Below are positions 2,882 to 48,903 of a stretch of 64,000 bases of DNA, piece after piece. The stretch is from Patescibacteria group bacterium (GTDB lineage: Bacteria; Patescibacteriota; Patescibacteriia; 2-01-FULL-39-33). Location: NCBI GenBank assembly GCA_041650895.1, contig JBAZKF010000002.1:88425-152424 (forward strand), read 5' to 3'. Each line of letters starts with the position of its first letter. Position 1 is the first letter of the stretch. Below the pieces are notes generated by a model. It searched no databases. It was not told where the DNA came from and saw only the letters and a program-made list of their open reading frames with translations. A program made the position numbers and the translations under genes.

Positions 2882-3373
2882 ATGCAAATAATTAATAAAG
2901 CCGTTATAGGAAGTCGTTCCTGCATAATAGAATACAATGATACTGATGATTTTTCGTCATTACCATATGATTTGTGTACTCAGGTTTATGGTGTTTGTTT
3001 TTATGAAGATAAAATTATAGTTGTACATGAAGGTAAAAGAGATATTTGGATGCTGGCGGGTGGAAGTATTGAATCAGGGGAAACATACGAACAGACATTA
3101 AGGCGTGAGGTTCAAGAAGAATCAAATATGGAGATTATAACTTGGACTCCTTTGGGTTGGCAAAAAATAGTCTATAATGATAATGGCGAGGCCGTTATTC
3201 AATTACGGGCAGTTTGTAGAGTCAAGCCATTAGGTGAATTTATTAAAGACCCGGCCGGTACTGTAGATAAAATGGAATTAATTAACCCTGATGATTACAG
3301 GAAATATTTTGATTGGGGTGATATAGGGGAATGGATAATTAATTCAGCTAAACAAAAAGTTAATTTAATATAA
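2882..3373 (+). CDS. NUDIX hydrolase
   Basis: Nudix box GGSIESGETYEQTLRREVQEESNM (GX5EX7REVXEESG). The gene is very AT-rich compared with its neighbours. Confidence 0.75.
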   Translation: MQIINKAVIGSRSCIIEYNDTDDFSSLPYDLCTQVYGVCFYEDKIIVVHEGKRDIWMLAGGSIESGETYEQTLRREVQEESNMEIITWTPLGWQKIVYNDNGEAVIQLRAVCRVKPLGEFIKDPAGTVDKMELINPDDYRKYFDWGDIGEWIINSAKQKVNLI

Positions 3374-3582: not shown

Positions 3583-3727
3583 GAGTTATTTTTGTTCTGA
3601 ATTGTTTTTATCTGATTTCATGTAGATCCGGATTGATGCTTTCAAGCCGAATAAGGATAATTATTAATAATAAAAGAGCAGTCGCGATGGCTGCTCTTTA
3701 AATAAATACATAAAGTGCGAATTAGAA

Positions 3728-4702
3728 TTACTTATATGCTGATCGGAAGCAATCAAAGGCGTTGACTGCGGCCGTAAGCAAATCCCGCTTCAGGCAAAGC
3801 TCGTCACAGAGCATCATTTCGCGATAGCCGATATCATACAGCCAAGCCAGCTCCAAAAAATCGGAGCAAGATGGGACTGGTTCGGCGACTACCGAAAGCA
3901 TAATGCGGGAACCGACGCAGGCGCCGGGGTCCTTGGCGATGATCAGTTTTAGCGCCGCCATAATTTCATGGGGCCGATCGATTTCAACATACAAATCGCC
4001 TCGAGCCGCTATGAGTGACGTCTTGTCGCTTCTTTTGAATTCAGTGGCAACGTATTCCAATCCTTTCTTATCCTCAATTTTCAGCTTGACTTCAGCATCT
4101 GGTCCGACTAGTTCTCGGAACTCATCGATATAGCGCTGATTGCTGACATACGAAAGATAATACCTGGTAAAACCCGCCGCTCTGACTTTTTCGATCTTCA
4201 GCTTCTCTTCATCCGTGAACATCTCACCCAGAATCCGTAATTGCGGATGTCTGACATGGAGCGATTCTCCGGCTTTGACTAAATACTCTGGACCGCCATT
4301 AAAAATTAATCTCCGGCCACCGTCTTCCAGACGGATCAGTTCTGCGCCGTCTGCTCCAGCCTTGAATAGCACTGGTATCGGCGTAGGAACACTGATCGGA
4401 TGATTGATGACAATATCCAGAAAATGGGGATTGAAGTTGACCTCAGTAATTCTTAACTGACGGCCCTTGATGTCATACCACAGCGGGACGCCAAATAGCG
4501 ATGATTTGATTTTTTCCAGCTCATGATCCAATTCCGGACAGCTCATCATCGCGCTATTAAGGCGGATGCCGGCAATTCGGTTGTCATTGGCGAACTGATC
4601 AAAATGAGGCATGCTCGGCCAAAGCGTTACATGTAAAAATAAATCATCAAGAATTTTCGGGACCACTAGCTGAGGCCTACCTTTCTTAATCCATTTGAAC
4701 AT
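3728..4702 (-). CDS. Pyruvate kinase-like TIM-barrel enzyme (A/B domains only, no C-terminal regulatory domain)
   Basis: Colinear PK motifs IAGIRLNSA (cf. MNVARLNFSHG), LWYDIKGRQLRIT (cf. LLDTKGPEIRT), LKIEDKKG (cf. KIENQEG), IAARGDLYVEI (cf. MVARGDLGVEI) and MMLCDEL (cf. MLSGETA). Only 324 aa. Confidence 0.65.
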   Translation of the reverse strand: MFKWIKKGRPQLVVPKILDDLFLHVTLWPSMPHFDQFANDNRIAGIRLNSAMMSCPELDHELEKIKSSLFGVPLWYDIKGRQLRITEVNFNPHFLDIVINHPISVPTPIPVLFKAGADGAELIRLEDGGRRLIFNGGPEYLVKAGESLHVRHPQLRILGEMFTDEEKLKIEKVRAAGFTRYYLSYVSNQRYIDEFRELVGPDAEVKLKIEDKKGLEYVATEFKRSDKTSLIAARGDLYVEIDRPHEIMAALKLIIAKDPGACVGSRIMLSVVAEPVPSCSDFLELAWLYDIGYREMMLCDELCLKRDLLTAAVNAFDCFRSAYK

Positions 4703-4714
4703 GGCAAGCCTCCC

Positions 4715-5722
4715 TTAAAGCAGTTTGCTTCCGGGTTTGACGGCAGTTTTCGAACGACGGCGAGTAACAGATCGTCCGGGAGCAGGCAGCATTTCCTGTG
4801 GGTCAGCCGGTTGCGGATCATGGATTGTTTCCAGGGACTTGAAAACAATAGCGATTTTTTTTGGTCCATCATGGTCTTTCAGTTGCCGTTGGGTCACTTC
4901 CTCGCGGAAGTAATCAAACTTGCCGGTTTCTTCGCCCAGGATGCCAAAAATGATATCCACAACGCGGTCGGCATTCGGCAGGGTGGTAATATGATCTTCT
5001 CCGAGCAAATCAGCCCAGGTCTTGTAGATTTTCTTGTTAGTCGAATCCATTGCATTAGCGTTTCCGCAGTCGCCATAGGGACGCCGGATAAGATAGACTG
5101 CCCAATTGTTTTTCAAACTCTCAAAAACGTCTTTGGTCGAAAGCCGGCCTTGGATTTTGATGCCCAACAGATCTTTCGCCTGTTCAGCATTAATGAAAGG
5201 GTAGGGCGCTTCATCGCCGATAAAGATCAGAATGCCTTTGCGGATCGTATTCGGCATTTCGGCCAGTCGATCAAAATAGAGGGCGATCAGTTCATATGTT
5301 TCCATTACTCCGCTACCGCCATTGCCTTCGATAATCAATTCTTTAAGCGCCTTTTTCATATCCAAGCCCTTGGCCGGCGGTCGGATCTGTACCGGGTAGC
5401 TATCGCCATGGGCGTCGCCAGTCGCTCCGAAGCAGATCTCCATATCTTTGCCGAGGTACTCCTGGCCTTCAAGATCCAAGTATCCCAGTTTGGAAAAGAA
5501 TACTTTCGGATCTTTTCCCATTGAACCGGTAACATCGGAAATGATGGCGAGAGGAATCCGTGACTTAAAAACAACTTTGGGAGCAATCAGATCTTTTTTG
5601 CCTTTTCCGGCAGTAACCGCATCCGCATAACTTCTGCCCGCATGGGCATCGTAGGCTTTGCGTGCGCTTTTGAAATCATGGCCTTTCCACGGACCTGGAT
5701 CGAAATCACTGGATTCTGACAT
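4715..5722 (-). CDS. von Willebrand factor A (vWA) domain protein with MIDAS motif
   Basis: MIDAS DxSxS motif in IISDVTGSMG. Predicted vWA alpha/beta fold. 12-nt gap to the PK-like gene and 33-nt gap to the kinase gene. Confidence 0.65.
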   Translation of the reverse strand: MSESSDFDPGPWKGHDFKSARKAYDAHAGRSYADAVTAGKGKKDLIAPKVVFKSRIPLAIISDVTGSMGKDPKVFFSKLGYLDLEGQEYLGKDMEICFGATGDAHGDSYPVQIRPPAKGLDMKKALKELIIEGNGGSGVMETYELIALYFDRLAEMPNTIRKGILIFIGDEAPYPFINAEQAKDLLGIKIQGRLSTKDVFESLKNNWAVYLIRRPYGDCGNANAMDSTNKKIYKTWADLLGEDHITTLPNADRVVDIIFGILGEETGKFDYFREEVTQRQLKDHDGPKKIAIVFKSLETIHDPQPADPQEMLPAPGRSVTRRRSKTAVKPGSKLL

Positions 5723-5755
5723 GATTATTCTCCTTTTCGGTTGTAATTTATTAAA

Positions 5756-6799
5756 TTAATCTAAGCCGGGAATTGGTGCAAGATTTGTTGAACTCTTTCC
5801 AAAGCATTTCAATCTCACTTCTTTAATCTCATCACATAGATCATTACCGCCCGTGCCCCATTTCGGTCGACTATTTACGTCACGCACAATCAGCCGGCGG
5901 ATAAAATTACAGAGTTCATCCGGCACATAATTGGGCACTGATCGATGCTTGACGGCTTGGATGTCTCCGCTCAAGGCGTAAATCATGGTCACGCCAAGGC
6001 TGTAAAGATCTGATTCCGGAACCAAGACTAACCCCTTCAATTGTTCCGGGGGAGACATAAGCGCAGTATATCCTTTGTTATCAGATCGAGCACCTGGCTT
6101 AACCATCGACAGGCCGAAATCAACAATCGAAATCATATGGGTCGGATTTTGGATAATGATATTTTGTGGCTTAATGTCTCCATGGATGACTCCATGGTAA
6201 TGGATGTATTTGAGAGCGTTAAGAACGCGCTCGGCAATCCAGGCGACATGTTCGGCCGGAATTGGACCGATTTTATTGACGACTTGTTCTAACGTCAGGC
6301 CGGGGATATAGCTCATGATAAGTATATATCGTCCGTCATCAAGTTTAATAATGTTTCTGACGGCGGGAATTGAGAAATGGCGTAAATCCCACATAGCGAT
6401 GGTTTCTTGAAGCAATATCTCATTAAATTCCGGATCGACATTATGACAGTGTTTAAGGCAGACTGGTTGTTTGGTTAAGATGTGCTCGCCCAAATAGGTG
6501 GTGCCGAAGCCGCCCTCAGCGATTTCCCTAAGCAATCGATAATCGCCAATAATTTTTCCGGTCAGATTATTCCGCCCCGCATCGTAGGAACGACGCTTAG
6601 CGGTATCAGACAGGATTTCATGCGCTTCATTTAGTTGTCTGGCCATTCGTCCGGCGGTGTCTTTCATATCTGGATGATGTTTTTTCATTAGTGCCAGATA
6701 AGCGGCGTGAATTACCTCTGGCGAAGCCATTGGGTTCACCTGAAGCAAACTGTAATAATCGGGGATTGGTCCGCTGGGATCTCGCGGCTTTTTAAACAT
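5756..6799 (-). CDS. J-domain (DnaJ N-terminal) fused to a Ser/Thr protein kinase
   Basis: Start refined to MFKKPRDP, which has an AAGGAGAC RBS. The ORF-track extension to 6925 lacks an RBS. J-domain YYSLLQVNPMASPEVIHAAYLALMKKHHPD carries the HPD tripeptide. Kinase motifs GGFGTTY...CLK (Gly loop and Lys), HGDIKPQNIII (catalytic loop) and VDFGLS (DFG). Confidence 0.75.
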   Translation of the reverse strand: MFKKPRDPSGPIPDYYSLLQVNPMASPEVIHAAYLALMKKHHPDMKDTAGRMARQLNEAHEILSDTAKRRSYDAGRNNLTGKIIGDYRLLREIAEGGFGTTYLGEHILTKQPVCLKHCHNVDPEFNEILLQETIAMWDLRHFSIPAVRNIIKLDDGRYILIMSYIPGLTLEQVVNKIGPIPAEHVAWIAERVLNALKYIHYHGVIHGDIKPQNIIIQNPTHMISIVDFGLSMVKPGARSDNKGYTALMSPPEQLKGLVLVPESDLYSLGVTMIYALSGDIQAVKHRSVPNYVPDELCNFIRRLIVRDVNSRPKWGTGGNDLCDEIKEVRLKCFGKSSTNLAPIPGLD

Positions 6800-7117
6800 G
6801 GCGCGTCTCCTTATCTTGTTGTATCTCACAAAACTTATTGTAGAATGATTAATTTTTCCGTTTTTTCTCGCCTTTTTTAACAATATTGTGTCTAAATTGT
6901 CAATGTTCATTTGATAGAATAGCATATCATATTATACAAGTATTGTCGAATTTTATGATTTTTCGAATTTTTATATAGGGAAATGGGTCAATTGATAAAC
7001 GGGTGTATTTTGGTAATTTATCTCTGTGCTAACTTAGGGGATATTTATTGGTATTGATTTGTTCTGAAATATACTTTTAAAAACTGTCTATAATTATAAA
7101 TAGGCAGTTTTTTTATT

Positions 7118-7147
7118 TTTGACAAAAAGTTGTTTAAAATTGTATAA
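7118..7147 (+). promoter_or_regulatory. Sigma70-type promoter TTGACA-N18-TGTATAAT (extended -10) for the LysM surface-protein gene
   Basis: TTGACA at 7118-7123. TATAAT at 7142-7147, preceded by TG. Confidence 0.5.
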
Positions 7148-7176
7148 TTTAAGCATTATTTTATTTAAAAGTAGTT

Positions 7177-46323: not shown

Positions 46324-48903
46324 ATGCCCTTAGATGAAGTACAGAATCCTTATCAATTTGATTTGTTTTTGTTATTTTCCAGCATACCCGACGCGGTAAT
46401 TTATGCGATTGTCGGTGTTGTTATTTTTCTGTTGGTTTGTTTTGTCGTCCTATTGATTATGCGTGCCGTTTTTAGATCCCAGAAGCGTTATCCCAAAGTT
46501 TTTCAACAGCATATTTTTTTGGTAACGGTGCCGCAGCGAGTTAAGGAAGAAGGGGAGAATAAAAAGCAGTTGTCGGAAATAATCTCGGAAATTGAAGGGT
46601 TATACGCCAATTTGGGCGGACTTAGGGCATCCAAGGGTTTTAAGGCTTGGCTGTTCGGTCGTTTTGATCACTGGTCGTTGGAAATTGTTTTGGGTCTGGA
46701 CGGCTTGATTTCTTTTTATATCGCTGTTCCCGAATACTTAGTGGAGTATATTAAACAACAGATTTTTTCCAAGTATCCTTACGCGCAGATTGAAGAGACC
46801 GGCGATTATAACATTTTTAATCAGCAGGGTTTTGTCGCCATCGGTTATCTTAAACTGCTTAAGCAGAACATGTTTCCGATTCTGACCTATAAGCAGATGA
46901 ATAATGTTGACCCGCTCGTGTCCATCATCAGTGTTTTATCTAAATTCGGCGATCAGCAGACCGCGGCTATTCAGTTGGTGATGCGTTCGGCTGTCGGCGG
47001 TTGGCGCAATAAGGGCGTTAAGGTGGCTTCAGAAATGCAACAAGGTAAAGATATCAAAAAGGCCTTGGCCGCGGCCAATCCCGGACTTTTTTCCGGTTTG
47101 AGTAATATTTTTGGTGCGCCTTCTGATTGGTTTTTTGCTTCTAAGCCCAAAGATTTGAGCAAGACCTCAGAACAATACCGTTTGTCGCCTATGGAGGAGC
47201 AGGCGGTTAAAGCGATTGAGGAAAAAGCTTCCAAGGCCGGTTTGGATGTCAATATTCGCGTCGTGGCTTTTGCGCCGCTGGAGTCTCAAGCCAATGAAAA
47301 TCTCAGGCGTTTGATTGACTCCTTCGCGCAGTATTCCAGTTATCAATATGCCAACGGCTTTAAAGGAGTGGTTAAAGGCGACGGCAAACAACTGATTCAT
47401 GATTTTATCTATCGCAGTTTTGATGATAAGGCTGGCATGGTATTAAACACCGAAGAAATGACTTCGTTATGGCACCTGCCCCTGCCTAATACCGAGGTGC
47501 CGAGAATTAATTGGTTGATGGCTCGGCGCCTGCCCCCACCTTTGAATATTCCGACCGAAGGCGTAATAGTAGGCGAGAATGTTTATCGTGGCCAAAAAAC
47601 AGTCATTAAAATGAAAGACGCAGATCGCCGTCGCCATATGTATATCATTGGTATGACCGGTACCGGTAAATCCACGACCATGGCCACCATGGCGGTGCAA
47701 GATATCCGTGACGGCAAAGGCGTCTGCGTAATTGATCCGCATGGCGAATTGGTGGAAAACATTCTGAAAGGCATTCCCAAAGAGCGCGTGGAAGACGTGA
47801 TTCTGTTTGATCCTTCTGATATGGAACGGCCGATTGGCCTGAATATGCTGGAGGCCAGCAGTTCTTACGAGATGGATATGGCGGCGCAAGAAATGATCAA
47901 TATCTTTTATAAGTTATTGCCCGATCCGGCGATGGCCGGCCCGATGTTTGAGCATTATATGAGAAACGCGCTGTTAGCCCTGATGGCCGACCGCGAAGAT
48001 CCGGGAACCTTAGTAGAATTGGCCCGTATTTTTACTGACGATACTTTCCGCAAGAAAAAATTAGAGCACGTAACCGACATTTTGGTAAAAGATTTTTGGG
48101 AGCGAGAATACGCCATGTCCCAGAAGGGCTCTACGGGCGCCGATATGCTGTCCTATGTCATTTCCAAAACCGGCCGATTTGTGGAAAATGAGCTGATGCG
48201 CAACATTATCGGCCAGTCTCATTCAGGCATTAATTTTCGCGAAGCCATGGATTCGGGCAAGATCTTATTGTTGAATCTATGCAAAGGCAAGATAGGCGAG
48301 ACTAATAGCAGTTTGCTGGGCCTAATCGCCGTCGCTAAGTTGCAGATGGCGGCTTTGTCCCGCGCCGATATGCCGGAAGATCAGCGCCAGGATTTTTTCT
48401 TGTATATTGATGAATTTCAGAATTTTATTACCGATTCCATTTCCATCATTTTGTCCGAAGCCAGGAAATACAAACTTAATCTTTGTCTGGGCCATCAATT
48501 CATTTCGCAGTTGGTGCAAAACAATGATACGCGCGTGCGTGATGCAGTTTTTGGCAATGTGGGCAATCTATTGGTTTATCGTATCGGCGTGGATGATTCG
48601 GAGATTATCGCCAAACAATTATCGCCGGTGGTCAATGAATATGACGTGATGAATATTGAAAAATACAACGCTTACTTCCGTATTATGATTGATAATACGG
48701 CTATGCCGGCCTTTAATATAAAGTGTTATCAACCATCTGACGTGGTTCAGATCAATCCTGAGATTGTTACACCGCTTAAGGAATTATCCCGCCTCAAATA
48801 CGGTCGCGACCATCAATCGGTGGTGCGGGATATTATGGAGCGCAGTCAGATCGGCCGGCTGGGCGGAGCCAAAAAAGAAAGCCCGGGCGAATTCGGGTTT
48901 TAA
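46324..48903 (+). CDS. Membrane-anchored FtsK/HerA-superfamily ATPase, VirD4/TraG coupling-protein-like
   Basis: N-terminal TM helix. Walker A YIIGMTGTGKST followed by VCVIDPHGEL (cf. the VirD4 vIDPKGE motif). Walker B FFLYIDEFQNF. Confidence 0.5.
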   Translation: MPLDEVQNPYQFDLFLLFSSIPDAVIYAIVGVVIFLLVCFVVLLIMRAVFRSQKRYPKVFQQHIFLVTVPQRVKEEGENKKQLSEIISEIEGLYANLGGLRASKGFKAWLFGRFDHWSLEIVLGLDGLISFYIAVPEYLVEYIKQQIFSKYPYAQIEETGDYNIFNQQGFVAIGYLKLLKQNMFPILTYKQMNNVDPLVSIISVLSKFGDQQTAAIQLVMRSAVGGWRNKGVKVASEMQQGKDIKKALAAANPGLFSGLSNIFGAPSDWFFASKPKDLSKTSEQYRLSPMEEQAVKAIEEKASKAGLDVNIRVVAFAPLESQANENLRRLIDSFAQYSSYQYANGFKGVVKGDGKQLIHDFIYRSFDDKAGMVLNTEEMTSLWHLPLPNTEVPRINWLMARRLPPPLNIPTEGVIVGENVYRGQKTVIKMKDADRRRHMYIIGMTGTGKSTTMATMAVQDIRDGKGVCVIDPHGELVENILKGIPKERVEDVILFDPSDMERPIGLNMLEASSSYEMDMAAQEMINIFYKLLPDPAMAGPMFEHYMRNALLALMADREDPGTLVELARIFTDDTFRKKKLEHVTDILVKDFWEREYAMSQKGSTGADMLSYVISKTGRFVENELMRNIIGQSHSGINFREAMDSGKILLLNLCKGKIGETNSSLLGLIAVAKLQMAALSRADMPEDQRQDFFLYIDEFQNFITDSISIILSEARKYKLNLCLGHQFISQLVQNNDTRVRDAVFGNVGNLLVYRIGVDDSEIIAKQLSPVVNEYDVMNIEKYNAYFRIMIDNTAMPAFNIKCYQPSDVVQINPEIVTPLKELSRLKYGRDHQSVVRDIMERSQIGRLGGAKKESPGEFGF

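Follow-up and report, generated by a model that had tools for sequence, protein, structure and literature searches.

A conserved cassette of a J-domain kinase, a divergent vWA protein, and a pyruvate-kinase-like enzyme in CPR bacteria, DPANN archaea, and huge phages

Phages are known to carry stand-alone J-domain proteins, such as Rki of the T4-like phage RB43, which engage the DnaK of the host. A protein with a von Willebrand factor A (vWA) domain and a Ser/Thr kinase are paired in the TerY-P system, which, as summarized in PMC11090510 (from Anantharaman, Iyer, and Aravind 2012 and Gao et al. 2020), consists of the TerY vWA protein, a PP2C phosphatase, and a kinase fused to a zinc ribbon or an OB fold; TerY-P-like modules are proven anti-phage systems (PMC11090510). 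In a 64,000-nucleotide stretch of contig JBAZKF010000002.1 of a Patescibacteria group bacterium (the window, from here on), an initial annotation made from the sequence had noticed three genes at positions 3728-6799, which it placed near this class. Our results show that these genes, for a kinase with a J domain, a divergent vWA protein, and a pyruvate-kinase-like (PK-like) enzyme, are one operon-like, self-contained unit that recurs with the same gene order in bacteria of the Candidate Phyla Radiation (CPR), in DPANN archaea, and in huge phages. We found no published description of this cassette, or of a sister cassette described below, in the literature searched, whose coverage is incomplete; this agrees with the suggestion of the initial annotation that the module is undescribed.

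The three genes lie on the minus strand, and the ORFs (open reading frames) confirm intergenic gaps of exactly 33 nucleotides (nt) between the kinase and vWA genes and 12 nt between the vWA and PK-like genes. The features of the locus are as follows (HPD, the His-Pro-Asp motif of J domains; MIDAS, metal ion-dependent adhesion site; aa, amino acids).

5756..6799, minus strand: first gene, J domain plus Hanks-type Ser/Thr kinase, 347 aa (Pfam matches)
6581..6760, minus strand: J domain of the kinase, residues 14-73, HPD at 42-44 (PF00226, profile positions 1-63 of 63)
5957..6541, minus strand: Pfam-matched part of the kinase catalytic domain, residues 87-281 (Pfam Pkinase and catalytic motifs)
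4715..5722, minus strand: second gene, divergent vWA/MIDAS protein, 335 aa, of the phrog_2971 family, which is without a Pfam model
5522..5536, minus strand: MIDAS motif 1, D63-V-T-G-S67, the site being completed by T142 and D170 (family alignments)
3728..4702, minus strand: third gene, PK-like enzyme, 324 aa, with the A (TIM barrel) and B domains only
3668..3704, no strand: hairpin with 14-nt arms and a 9-nt loop, an inverted repeat directly 3' of the PK-like stop codon, between convergent genes
6800..7176, minus strand: AT-rich intergenic region 5' of the kinase gene, holding AAGGAGA as ribosome-binding site and a weak candidate for a -35/-10 pair (6949->6921)

We scanned a collection of 185,579 genomes, one for each species, using the PK-like alignment and its near-invariant motifs as the seed and taking in 10 kb on either side of each locus; 63 loci with the PK-like gene were recovered. 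The hosts belong to many CPR lineages and to DPANN (Woesearchaeota, Nanoarchaeia, Pacearchaeota, and the complete AR15 chromosome), together with a few oddly labeled bins. A vWA-like gene lies directly upstream of the PK-like gene in 60 of the 63 loci and the kinase gene is found in 55, most of the missing partners being explained by contig ends. The order of J-domain kinase, vWA, and PK-like genes is the same wherever they are present, and the kinase gene is co-directional in all but four loci. The trio thus co-occurs far beyond chance, and the possibility raised by the initial annotation that the three genes might never be found together elsewhere decisively fails. Clustering of all flanking ORFs of the 63 loci gave no conserved fourth gene, whether Hsp70, MoxR, or FHA; the next most frequent neighbor, a tRNA synthetase, occurs at 9 loci.

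The surroundings of the cassette vary. The closest relatives, loci L001 and L002 (~80% identity), have different flanks and only the three cassette genes in common with the window, and elsewhere the cassette stands in a ribosomal-protein operon (a Woesearchaeote) or with SerRS/BamA genes beside an IS481 transposase (a diderm bacterium). The phyletic pattern (CPR, DPANN, huge phages), taken with these variable flanks, indicates horizontal mobility. The archaeal copies form one cluster nested among the bacterial copies, which suggests few inter-domain transfers. Mean pairwise identity is 57% for the PK-like, 50% for the vWA-like, and 51% for the kinase proteins.

The initial annotation had also pointed to a GC content higher than that of the surroundings and to horizontal acquisition. 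The GC content of the cassette (0.46-0.49) is indeed above that of its immediate neighbors, but it does not stand out from the window as a whole, where mean gene GC is 0.438 (standard deviation, 0.033) and the z scores of the cassette are 0.6-1.5 for GC and -0.1 to 0.7 for GC at third codon positions (GC3). The outliers are the AT-rich flanks, namely, the NUDIX gene at 2882-3373 (plus strand; GC 0.339, GC3 0.24) and a three-gene block at 7177-11973 (plus strand; GC 0.38-0.395, GC3 0.26-0.38) that encodes an 872-aa LysM/Big protein, a 341-aa protein without a Pfam match, and YibE/F; these genes look more foreign than the triad. We rejected GC as a sign of recent transfer of the triad, whose GC and GC3 are ordinary for the window. 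Composition therefore gives no indication of recent acquisition, and it is the phyletic pattern that speaks for mobility.

Several loci have further neighbors or labels of their own. A PhoU-like protein of ~315 aa, with an AbrB/SpoVT N terminus and a PhoU domain as judged by eye, adjoins the triad in five DPANN loci (L034, L030, L027, L049, and L045); its gene is divergent upstream or co-directional downstream, with gaps of 17-120 nt in four loci and an overlap with the triad end in L045. This proximity may point to a connection with archaeal phosphate regulation. In L001, the relative that belongs to the Buchananbacteria, two histidine-phosphatase-like proteins (phosphoglycerate-mutase-like, RHG by eye) are encoded directly upstream of the kinase gene, at 229-1965, and His_Phos_1 (Pfam) genes lie near the cassette in L106 and L114. 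The triad of L014 (JBAZER010000121.1, 2522 bp), labeled Omnitrophota, has 99-100% protein identity to that of the window; this label is most likely a binning error, as the isolate names are of the same project style (SO_2017_LW3_130), and other triad-bearing "Gammaproteobacteria," "Methanosarcinales," and "Spirochaetales" bins may be similarly mislabeled.

The whole trio is also found on 19 IMG/VR contigs of 45-440 kb, with phage-like arrays of small co-directional ORFs, and, at 131.7-134.6 kb, in LR745208.1, a 485-kb GenBank record labeled "uncultured phage," whose kinase shares 46% identity with that of the window and has the DnaJ, HPD, and Pkinase elements. No capsid or terminase genes were seen within 10 kb of the IMG/VR trios, whose viral status rests on the source label. 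The phage copies lie among nucleotide, NAD/ADP-ribose, and translation genes: one viral clade has a conserved order of CYTH and ADP-ribosylglycohydrolase (ARH) genes, then, after other genes, the trio and EF-G, and on other contigs Thg1, thymidylate synthase, RNA ligase, and a LAGLIDADG insertion are near the trio.

Two variations in the viral copies were observed. In L064 (an IMG/VR contig of 441,904 bp), three extra ORFs lie between the kinase and vWA genes at 8107-10023, including one for a LAGLIDADG homing endonuclease (PF03161, 3.9e-23). A protein of ~430-443 aa with weak Aldolase_II/DFP matches accompanies the triad in the viral clade (L074 8677-10008, L101 2481-3746, L080 376-1665, and L016 7448-8821); in L074/L094 its gene interrupts the triad, in L101 it follows the kinase gene at a distance of 12 nt, and the protein may be a facultative fourth component.

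The first protein is, as the initial annotation proposed, a J domain fused to a Ser/Thr kinase. The J domain matches Pfam DnaJ over the full length of the profile with 57.6 bits (cut-off, 27.8 bits) and has an intact HPD; the kinase domain matches Pfam Pkinase (PF00069) with 112.7 bits. Across 65 members of the family (type A, to set it apart from the sister cassette), K116, E132, HGD, and DFG are conserved in at least 95% (at least 60% for the F of DFG), and on these motifs the type A kinase is predicted to be catalytically competent. A J-like region is kept in 57 of the 65. The C-terminal tail of ~65 residues contains two Cys only and no Pfam domain.

The second protein is a vWA protein with an intact MIDAS, in keeping with the initial annotation. 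At E ≤ 0.1 it has no match among the families of Pfam, NCBIfam, and PADLOC, and no PDB entry matches it by sequence; an AlphaFold model built from the homolog alignment (pLDDT 78.8) has the Rossmann-like fold of vWA domains. The MIDAS is complete (D63-x-T65-x-S67, T142, and D170) and conserved in alignments of 23 and 65 sequences and in phage homologs; in alignment A2, D63, G66, S67, E141, D170, and E171 are invariant and T65 is nearly so. Binding of Mg2+ at this site is predicted. What sets the family apart is its acidic N-terminal peptide (SESGDYDPGPW), which is invariant, together with a loop rich in Gly (EGxGGG) and a C-terminal tail that is basic and disordered and contains a nearly invariant Ser318 within G-[KR]-S-V-x-R. 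The family is annotated in phrog_2971 as of "unknown function." It is small and discrete: its profile reaches only 1530 cluster representatives (50% identity) of 1.84 billion, and it therefore does not merge with generic vWA proteins.

The third protein consists of an A barrel with the B domain specific to pyruvate kinases, and the motifs DIKG, KIED, ARGDLYVEI, and MLCDE are present. Its match to PF00224 (23.6 bits) is under the Pfam cut-off of 30, but many homologs carry a precomputed PF00224 match; hence, of the profiles that the initial annotation had named, DnaJ and Pkinase matched, VWA gave no match, and PK stayed below its cut-off. The top 50 Foldseek PDB matches of the model (pLDDT 88.7) are all pyruvate kinases (E 1e-15, TMq up to 0.72, ~15% identity), and the homolog in L039 aligns to PykF residues 1-358. 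Alignment with hhalign placed K208/E210/D236/S265/E301 on K220/E222/D246/T278/E314 of PykF, S265 replacing Thr; all five residues are invariant in family alignment A1, and the enzyme keeps the PEP (phosphoenolpyruvate)/Mg2+ catalytic residues. At 324 aa the protein stops once the A domain is complete and lacks a match to PF02887, the C-terminal allosteric domain, as the initial annotation had noted; the link which that annotation drew with the HpcH-like barrels of Ter-associated modules gives way to a pyruvate kinase type. There are more than 1000 PK-like homologs, 56-81% identical among the matches listed, and the protein in the window is 100% identical to one NCBI protein from a metagenome-assembled genome, encoded on a 315-kb contig.

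The same vWA family is found in a sister cassette (type B), in which the enzyme is different. Homologs 25-30% identical to the vWA-like protein occur in 217 phage records, including 201 of Mycobacterium cluster C, 7 of Rhizobium, and 6 of Vibrio. In Mycobacterium phage Catera the order is gp249 ("kinase"), gp250 (vWA-like, with the same signature motifs), gp251, and gp252 (a PurA-like adenylosuccinate synthetase). The Rhizobium and Vibrio jumbo phages have the vWA-PurA pair; in RHph_TM61 (Rhizobium) and TDDLMA (Vibrio) a PurA-like gene comes immediately after the vWA-like one. PurA-like genes are present in 240 phage records, with a breakdown by host genus nearly equal to that of the vWA-like genes (almost one to one). 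In six type B neighborhoods found with three phage proteins, the PurA-like gene is always 0-2 genes downstream and a kinase-fold gene is directly upstream in four; two of the six are cellular chromosomes (Saccharimonadaceae and Acidimicrobiia, the latter beside rpsB-tsf), and the cassette is also found on metagenomic phage-like contigs. Aligned with the kinase of the window, the type B upstream proteins have HGA for HGD and DWC for DFG and are therefore pseudokinases. Their N-terminal HPD is kept in five of five. Pfam DnaJ is the top match of these five N termini, below threshold (E 1.6e-4 to 0.08), and a hidden Markov model made from type A J domains did not detect them; a J-like domain is probable.

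As the partner enzyme is PK-like in type A and PurA-like in type B, the core is a pair of a J-domain (pseudo)kinase and a vWA-like protein with a swappable nucleotide-phosphoryl-transfer enzyme. This goes beyond the initial annotation, as does the degeneration of HPD in ~37% of type A kinases. Type A has often lost HPD, whereas type B retains it and has an inactivated kinase, a converse pattern that suggests a choice between two outputs, phosphorylation and the engagement of Hsp70.

Three further observations concern type B. The vWA-like protein of locus L106, from a member of the Saccharimonadaceae, is 70% identical to gp250 of Mycobacterium phage Catera, a likeness made notable by the parasitism of Saccharibacteria on Actinobacteria. 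In a subset of Mycobacterium cluster C phages (e.g., NC_054721.1 151851-153419), the vWA-like match is in two pieces over ~1.57 kb, versus 0.8 kb, with an annotated HNH endonuclease underneath, which suggests a mobile intron or an intein-like insertion. NARP3 and other phage NAD+ pathways were considered as the identity of the sister cassette and rejected, their gene content being unrelated.

We tentatively favor, with somewhat less than even confidence, a model in which a mobile three-gene operon uses a kinase- and Hsp70-gated adaptor to control PEP-dependent supply of nucleoside triphosphates (NTPs). The vWA protein would be the adaptor, gripping a partner, either the enzyme or the kinase, via its Mg2+ MIDAS site. 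The kinase would phosphorylate the vWA protein, for which Ser318 in the disordered tail is the best candidate site, by analogy with ArnB/ArnC (PMC6509490, PMC12852372), and the J domain, where its HPD is intact as it is here, may recruit Hsp70 to remodel the complex. The vWA protein and the J-domain kinase could in this way stand in for the missing allosteric C domain of the PK-like enzyme, the pair gating PEP-dependent formation of ATP or GTP. The cassette would be an auxiliary energy- or nucleotide-supply module of huge phages, ultra-small symbiotic CPR bacteria, and DPANN archaea. Two observations, the very high conservation of the sequences and their setting in phages, favor an auxiliary metabolic role over an arms-race defense sensor. 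A broader proposal, possible but rather doubtful, is that the J-domain (pseudo)kinase and the vWA protein are an ancient, virus-associated, Hsp70-coupled adaptor or activase acting on a nucleotide-phosphoryl-transfer enzyme, used by huge and jumbo phages and, by transfer, by CPR and DPANN to secure purine-NTP supply from host-derived metabolites.

A number of observations weigh against the model of a gated, PEP-dependent NTP supply. HPD is kept in 36 of the 57 type A kinases with a J-like region and degenerate in the other 21 (QPA, MPN, YPD, APD, etc.), and the J-like region is absent from 8 of the 65 kinases, some of these being contig ends or start-codon calls and L017, L022, and L039 apparently true losses; Hsp70 recruitment is therefore not essential to every member. 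As read from alignments, the K+-site serine of canonical pyruvate kinases (RLNFSHG) is shifted in the PK-like protein (RLNSAM) and the nucleotide loop of the B domain differs, and the substrate may therefore not be ADP/PEP. The distance matrices of the three proteins correlate with r = 0.41-0.69, indicating partial co-evolution, and this mirror-tree correlation is moderate only. The substrate, the direction of the reaction, the physical contacts, and the phosphosite are all inferred. Finally, a biosynthetic role would be just as compatible with the PurA-like partner of type B and with the NAD-salvage genes around the cassette of L106.

Such a role, in which the PK-like and PurA-like enzymes make or recycle a nucleotide- or NAD/ADP-ribose-related metabolite and the vWA protein and J-domain (pseudo)kinase are assembly or regulatory subunits, seems to us unlikely. 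The type B cassette of L106 (JBMDUW010000001.1 296831-309886) lies inside a PncA-PncB-NadE-NadD-NrtR NAD-salvage cluster, with NUDIX/APH, NAPRTase, isochorismatase/PncA-like, His phosphatase, NrtR, NadE, and NMNAT-like genes as neighbors. An NMNAT-like gene stands between the vWA-like and PurA-like genes in L108, and NMNAT/NUDIX and NADAR genes adjoin the vWA-PurA pair in the Rhizobium and Vibrio phages. At type A loci, a PurA-like gene is directly upstream of the cassette in L020, L048, and L052, the ARH gene that is syntenic with the trio in the huge-phage clade, together with CYTH, is 51 nt away in L040, and the NUDIX gene abuts the cassette of the window. However, no NAD or nucleotide gene is consistently linked to type A loci, the PK-like active site resembles an ordinary PEP/Mg2+ site, and phage neighborhoods are rich in nucleotide genes anyway.

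A second alternative, raised by the initial annotation, is a TerY-P-like defense or stress module. The vWA protein would then be the sensor, of an invader or of a metal, and the kinase the relay to a PK-like effector that drains PEP or ATP in an abortive infection; the phage copies would serve in inter-phage competition. In favor of this reading are the pairing of a vWA protein with a Ser/Thr kinase, which defines TerY-P, the proven anti-phage action of TerY-P-like modules, the sporadic and mobile distribution, and a PP2C phosphatase gene 22-99 nt from the trio in 4 of the 63 loci, which fits a real phospho-switch. PADLOC includes TerY-P models, and its best matches for the kinase are the defense kinases mad6 (1.4e-39) and PD-T4-6; these matches, however, reflect the generic kinase domain, and PADLOC has no model that matches the vWA or the PK-like protein. 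A TerY-type sequence is lacking, the window contains no PP2C gene, and the kinase is fused to a J domain rather than to a zinc ribbon or an OB fold. Very high sequence conservation and an invariant architecture are unlike arms-race sensors, the flanks (ribosomal genes, SerRS/BamA, NUDIX, and LysM) are not defense islands, and the cassette is common in huge phages, within regions of metabolic and translation genes. The sequences thus lend no specific support to a role in defense, which we consider to have a small chance of being correct.

That the PK-like protein is simply the glycolytic pyruvate kinase of the organism in a reduced form, with the kinase and vWA proteins as local regulators, is highly improbable: some sources automatically annotate homologs as "pyruvate kinase," the gene is the sole PykF-like match in the window, and pyruvate kinase is patchy in DPANN, where "orphan" enzymes are reported (bioRxiv 10.64898/2026.05.13.725050), but the family motifs were matched in only 63 of 185,579 species genomes, conserved-neighbor clustering of the 63 loci gave no glycolytic neighbor and none of the fetched loci (10 kb on either side) has a canonical pyruvate kinase, the gene is carried by huge phages, identity to canonical enzymes is ~15% with a score below the Pfam cut-off, and the PK-like enzyme is swapped for a PurA-like one in the sister cassette.

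If the broader proposal of an Hsp70-coupled adaptor or activase is right, the pair and its enzyme would be a new class of parasite "energy-hijack" module common to two cellular domains and to viruses. Dependence on host cells unites huge phages, CPR bacteria, and DPANN archaea, whose energy acquisition is poorly understood, and a strongly conserved cassette found in all three, with a PK-like, putatively NTP-forming enzyme under kinase and perhaps chaperone control, provides a testable handle; it may also explain the "orphan" pyruvate kinases of DPANN genomes without upstream glycolysis. The vWA-like proteins (phrog_2971) are delimited here as a family that Pfam does not model, and a recurrent fusion of a J domain and a kinase fold comes to light in which kinase activity and HPD are apparently lost alternately. 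The sister cassette is present in ~200 sequenced cluster C phages of Mycobacterium smegmatis, which are genetically tractable.

Within the window, the ATG of the kinase gene at 6799 is preceded by AAGGAGA, and its open frame extends to 6925; the 347-aa start is preferred because homologs align from its residue 1. The hairpin at 3668-3704 is a probable terminator, although it was not among the matches of a consensus terminator scan. Promoter-like matches upstream of the kinase gene are no commoner than in shuffled sequence, and 6949->6921 is a weak promoter candidate. A plus-strand ORF of 237 aa within the vWA gene (4811..5524) looks like a shadow ORF. The cassette is flanked by the NUDIX gene on one side and the LysM/Big gene on the other; no integrase was found in the annotated flanks, and no convincing att-like repeats flank the cassette, the sole pair (17 nt, 82%) being at chance level. 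We rejected the possibility that the window is a mis-binned phage, as it carries UvrB, UvrD, MetK with a SAM (S-adenosylmethionine) riboswitch, and glycosyltransferases; it is a cellular Patescibacteria (CPR) chromosome.

Other genes of the window were also noted. A 1059-aa ORF at 12172-15351 (minus strand) matches the shoulder domain of the Major Vault Protein (PF11978, 8.3e-24) and, with a score under the cut-off, a Vault_3 repeat, and it has the highest GC of the window (0.51); it was rejected as a member of the module, a homolog being present in 0 of 63 cassette loci. Two SAM synthetases are encoded within 10 kb, one archaeal type at 16681-17874 (plus strand; PF01941, 9e-75) and the bacterial MetK at 24979-26292 (plus strand), with three S-AdoMet_synt domains and a SAM-I riboswitch in front, at 24979-25082 (66 bits). 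An 859-aa protein encoded at 46324-48903 (plus strand) is similar to a type IV secretion coupling protein (TrwB/TraG/HerA-like) and may belong to machinery for conjugation or competence.

In comparison with known systems, the cassette is like TerY-P in being a small, mobile, and sporadic operon that pairs a cytoplasmic MIDAS vWA protein with a Hanks-type kinase, with PP2C adjacent in the four loci mentioned. It differs in that the vWA protein belongs to a separate family (phrog_2971, with no Pfam VWA or PADLOC match), that the kinase has an N-terminal J domain and not a C-terminal zinc ribbon or OB fold, that PP2C is absent from the cassette of the window, and that a metabolic enzyme, PK-like or PurA-like, is the obligatory third member. 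With the TerY-type vWA protein, PP2C, and the zinc-ribbon/OB fusion all lacking, the cassette is therefore not a member of TerY-P, though it may work like one. The ArnA/ArnB-ArnC/ArnD module of Sulfolobus controls archaellum expression, without a J domain or an enzyme partner, and has an FHA/zinc-ribbon partner, ArnA (PMC6509490, PMC12852372); the cassette has no such conserved neighbor. Unlike the MoxR AAA+/vWA activases (CbbQ-CbbO, NorQ-NorD, and BchI-BchD), the cassette has a kinase domain and, in the 63 loci, no MoxR ATPase gene, and its HPD is lost in many members; its likeness to these activases and to ArnAB would be a purely inferential, functional analogy. With canonical pyruvate kinases (PF00224 and PF02887, e.g., Escherichia coli PykF), the third protein has in common the A-domain TIM barrel with an inserted B domain and the Lys/Glu/Asp/Ser(Thr)/Glu set; it differs in its low identity, in the absence of the C-terminal allosteric and tetramerization domain, in its altered K+-site motif, in its occurrence in phages, and in being encoded with a kinase-vWA pair and not beside glycolytic genes in the loci examined. 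Phage J proteins and the cassette both provide a virus-borne J domain, which in the cassette forms one polypeptide with a kinase fold and has a vWA protein as its partner.

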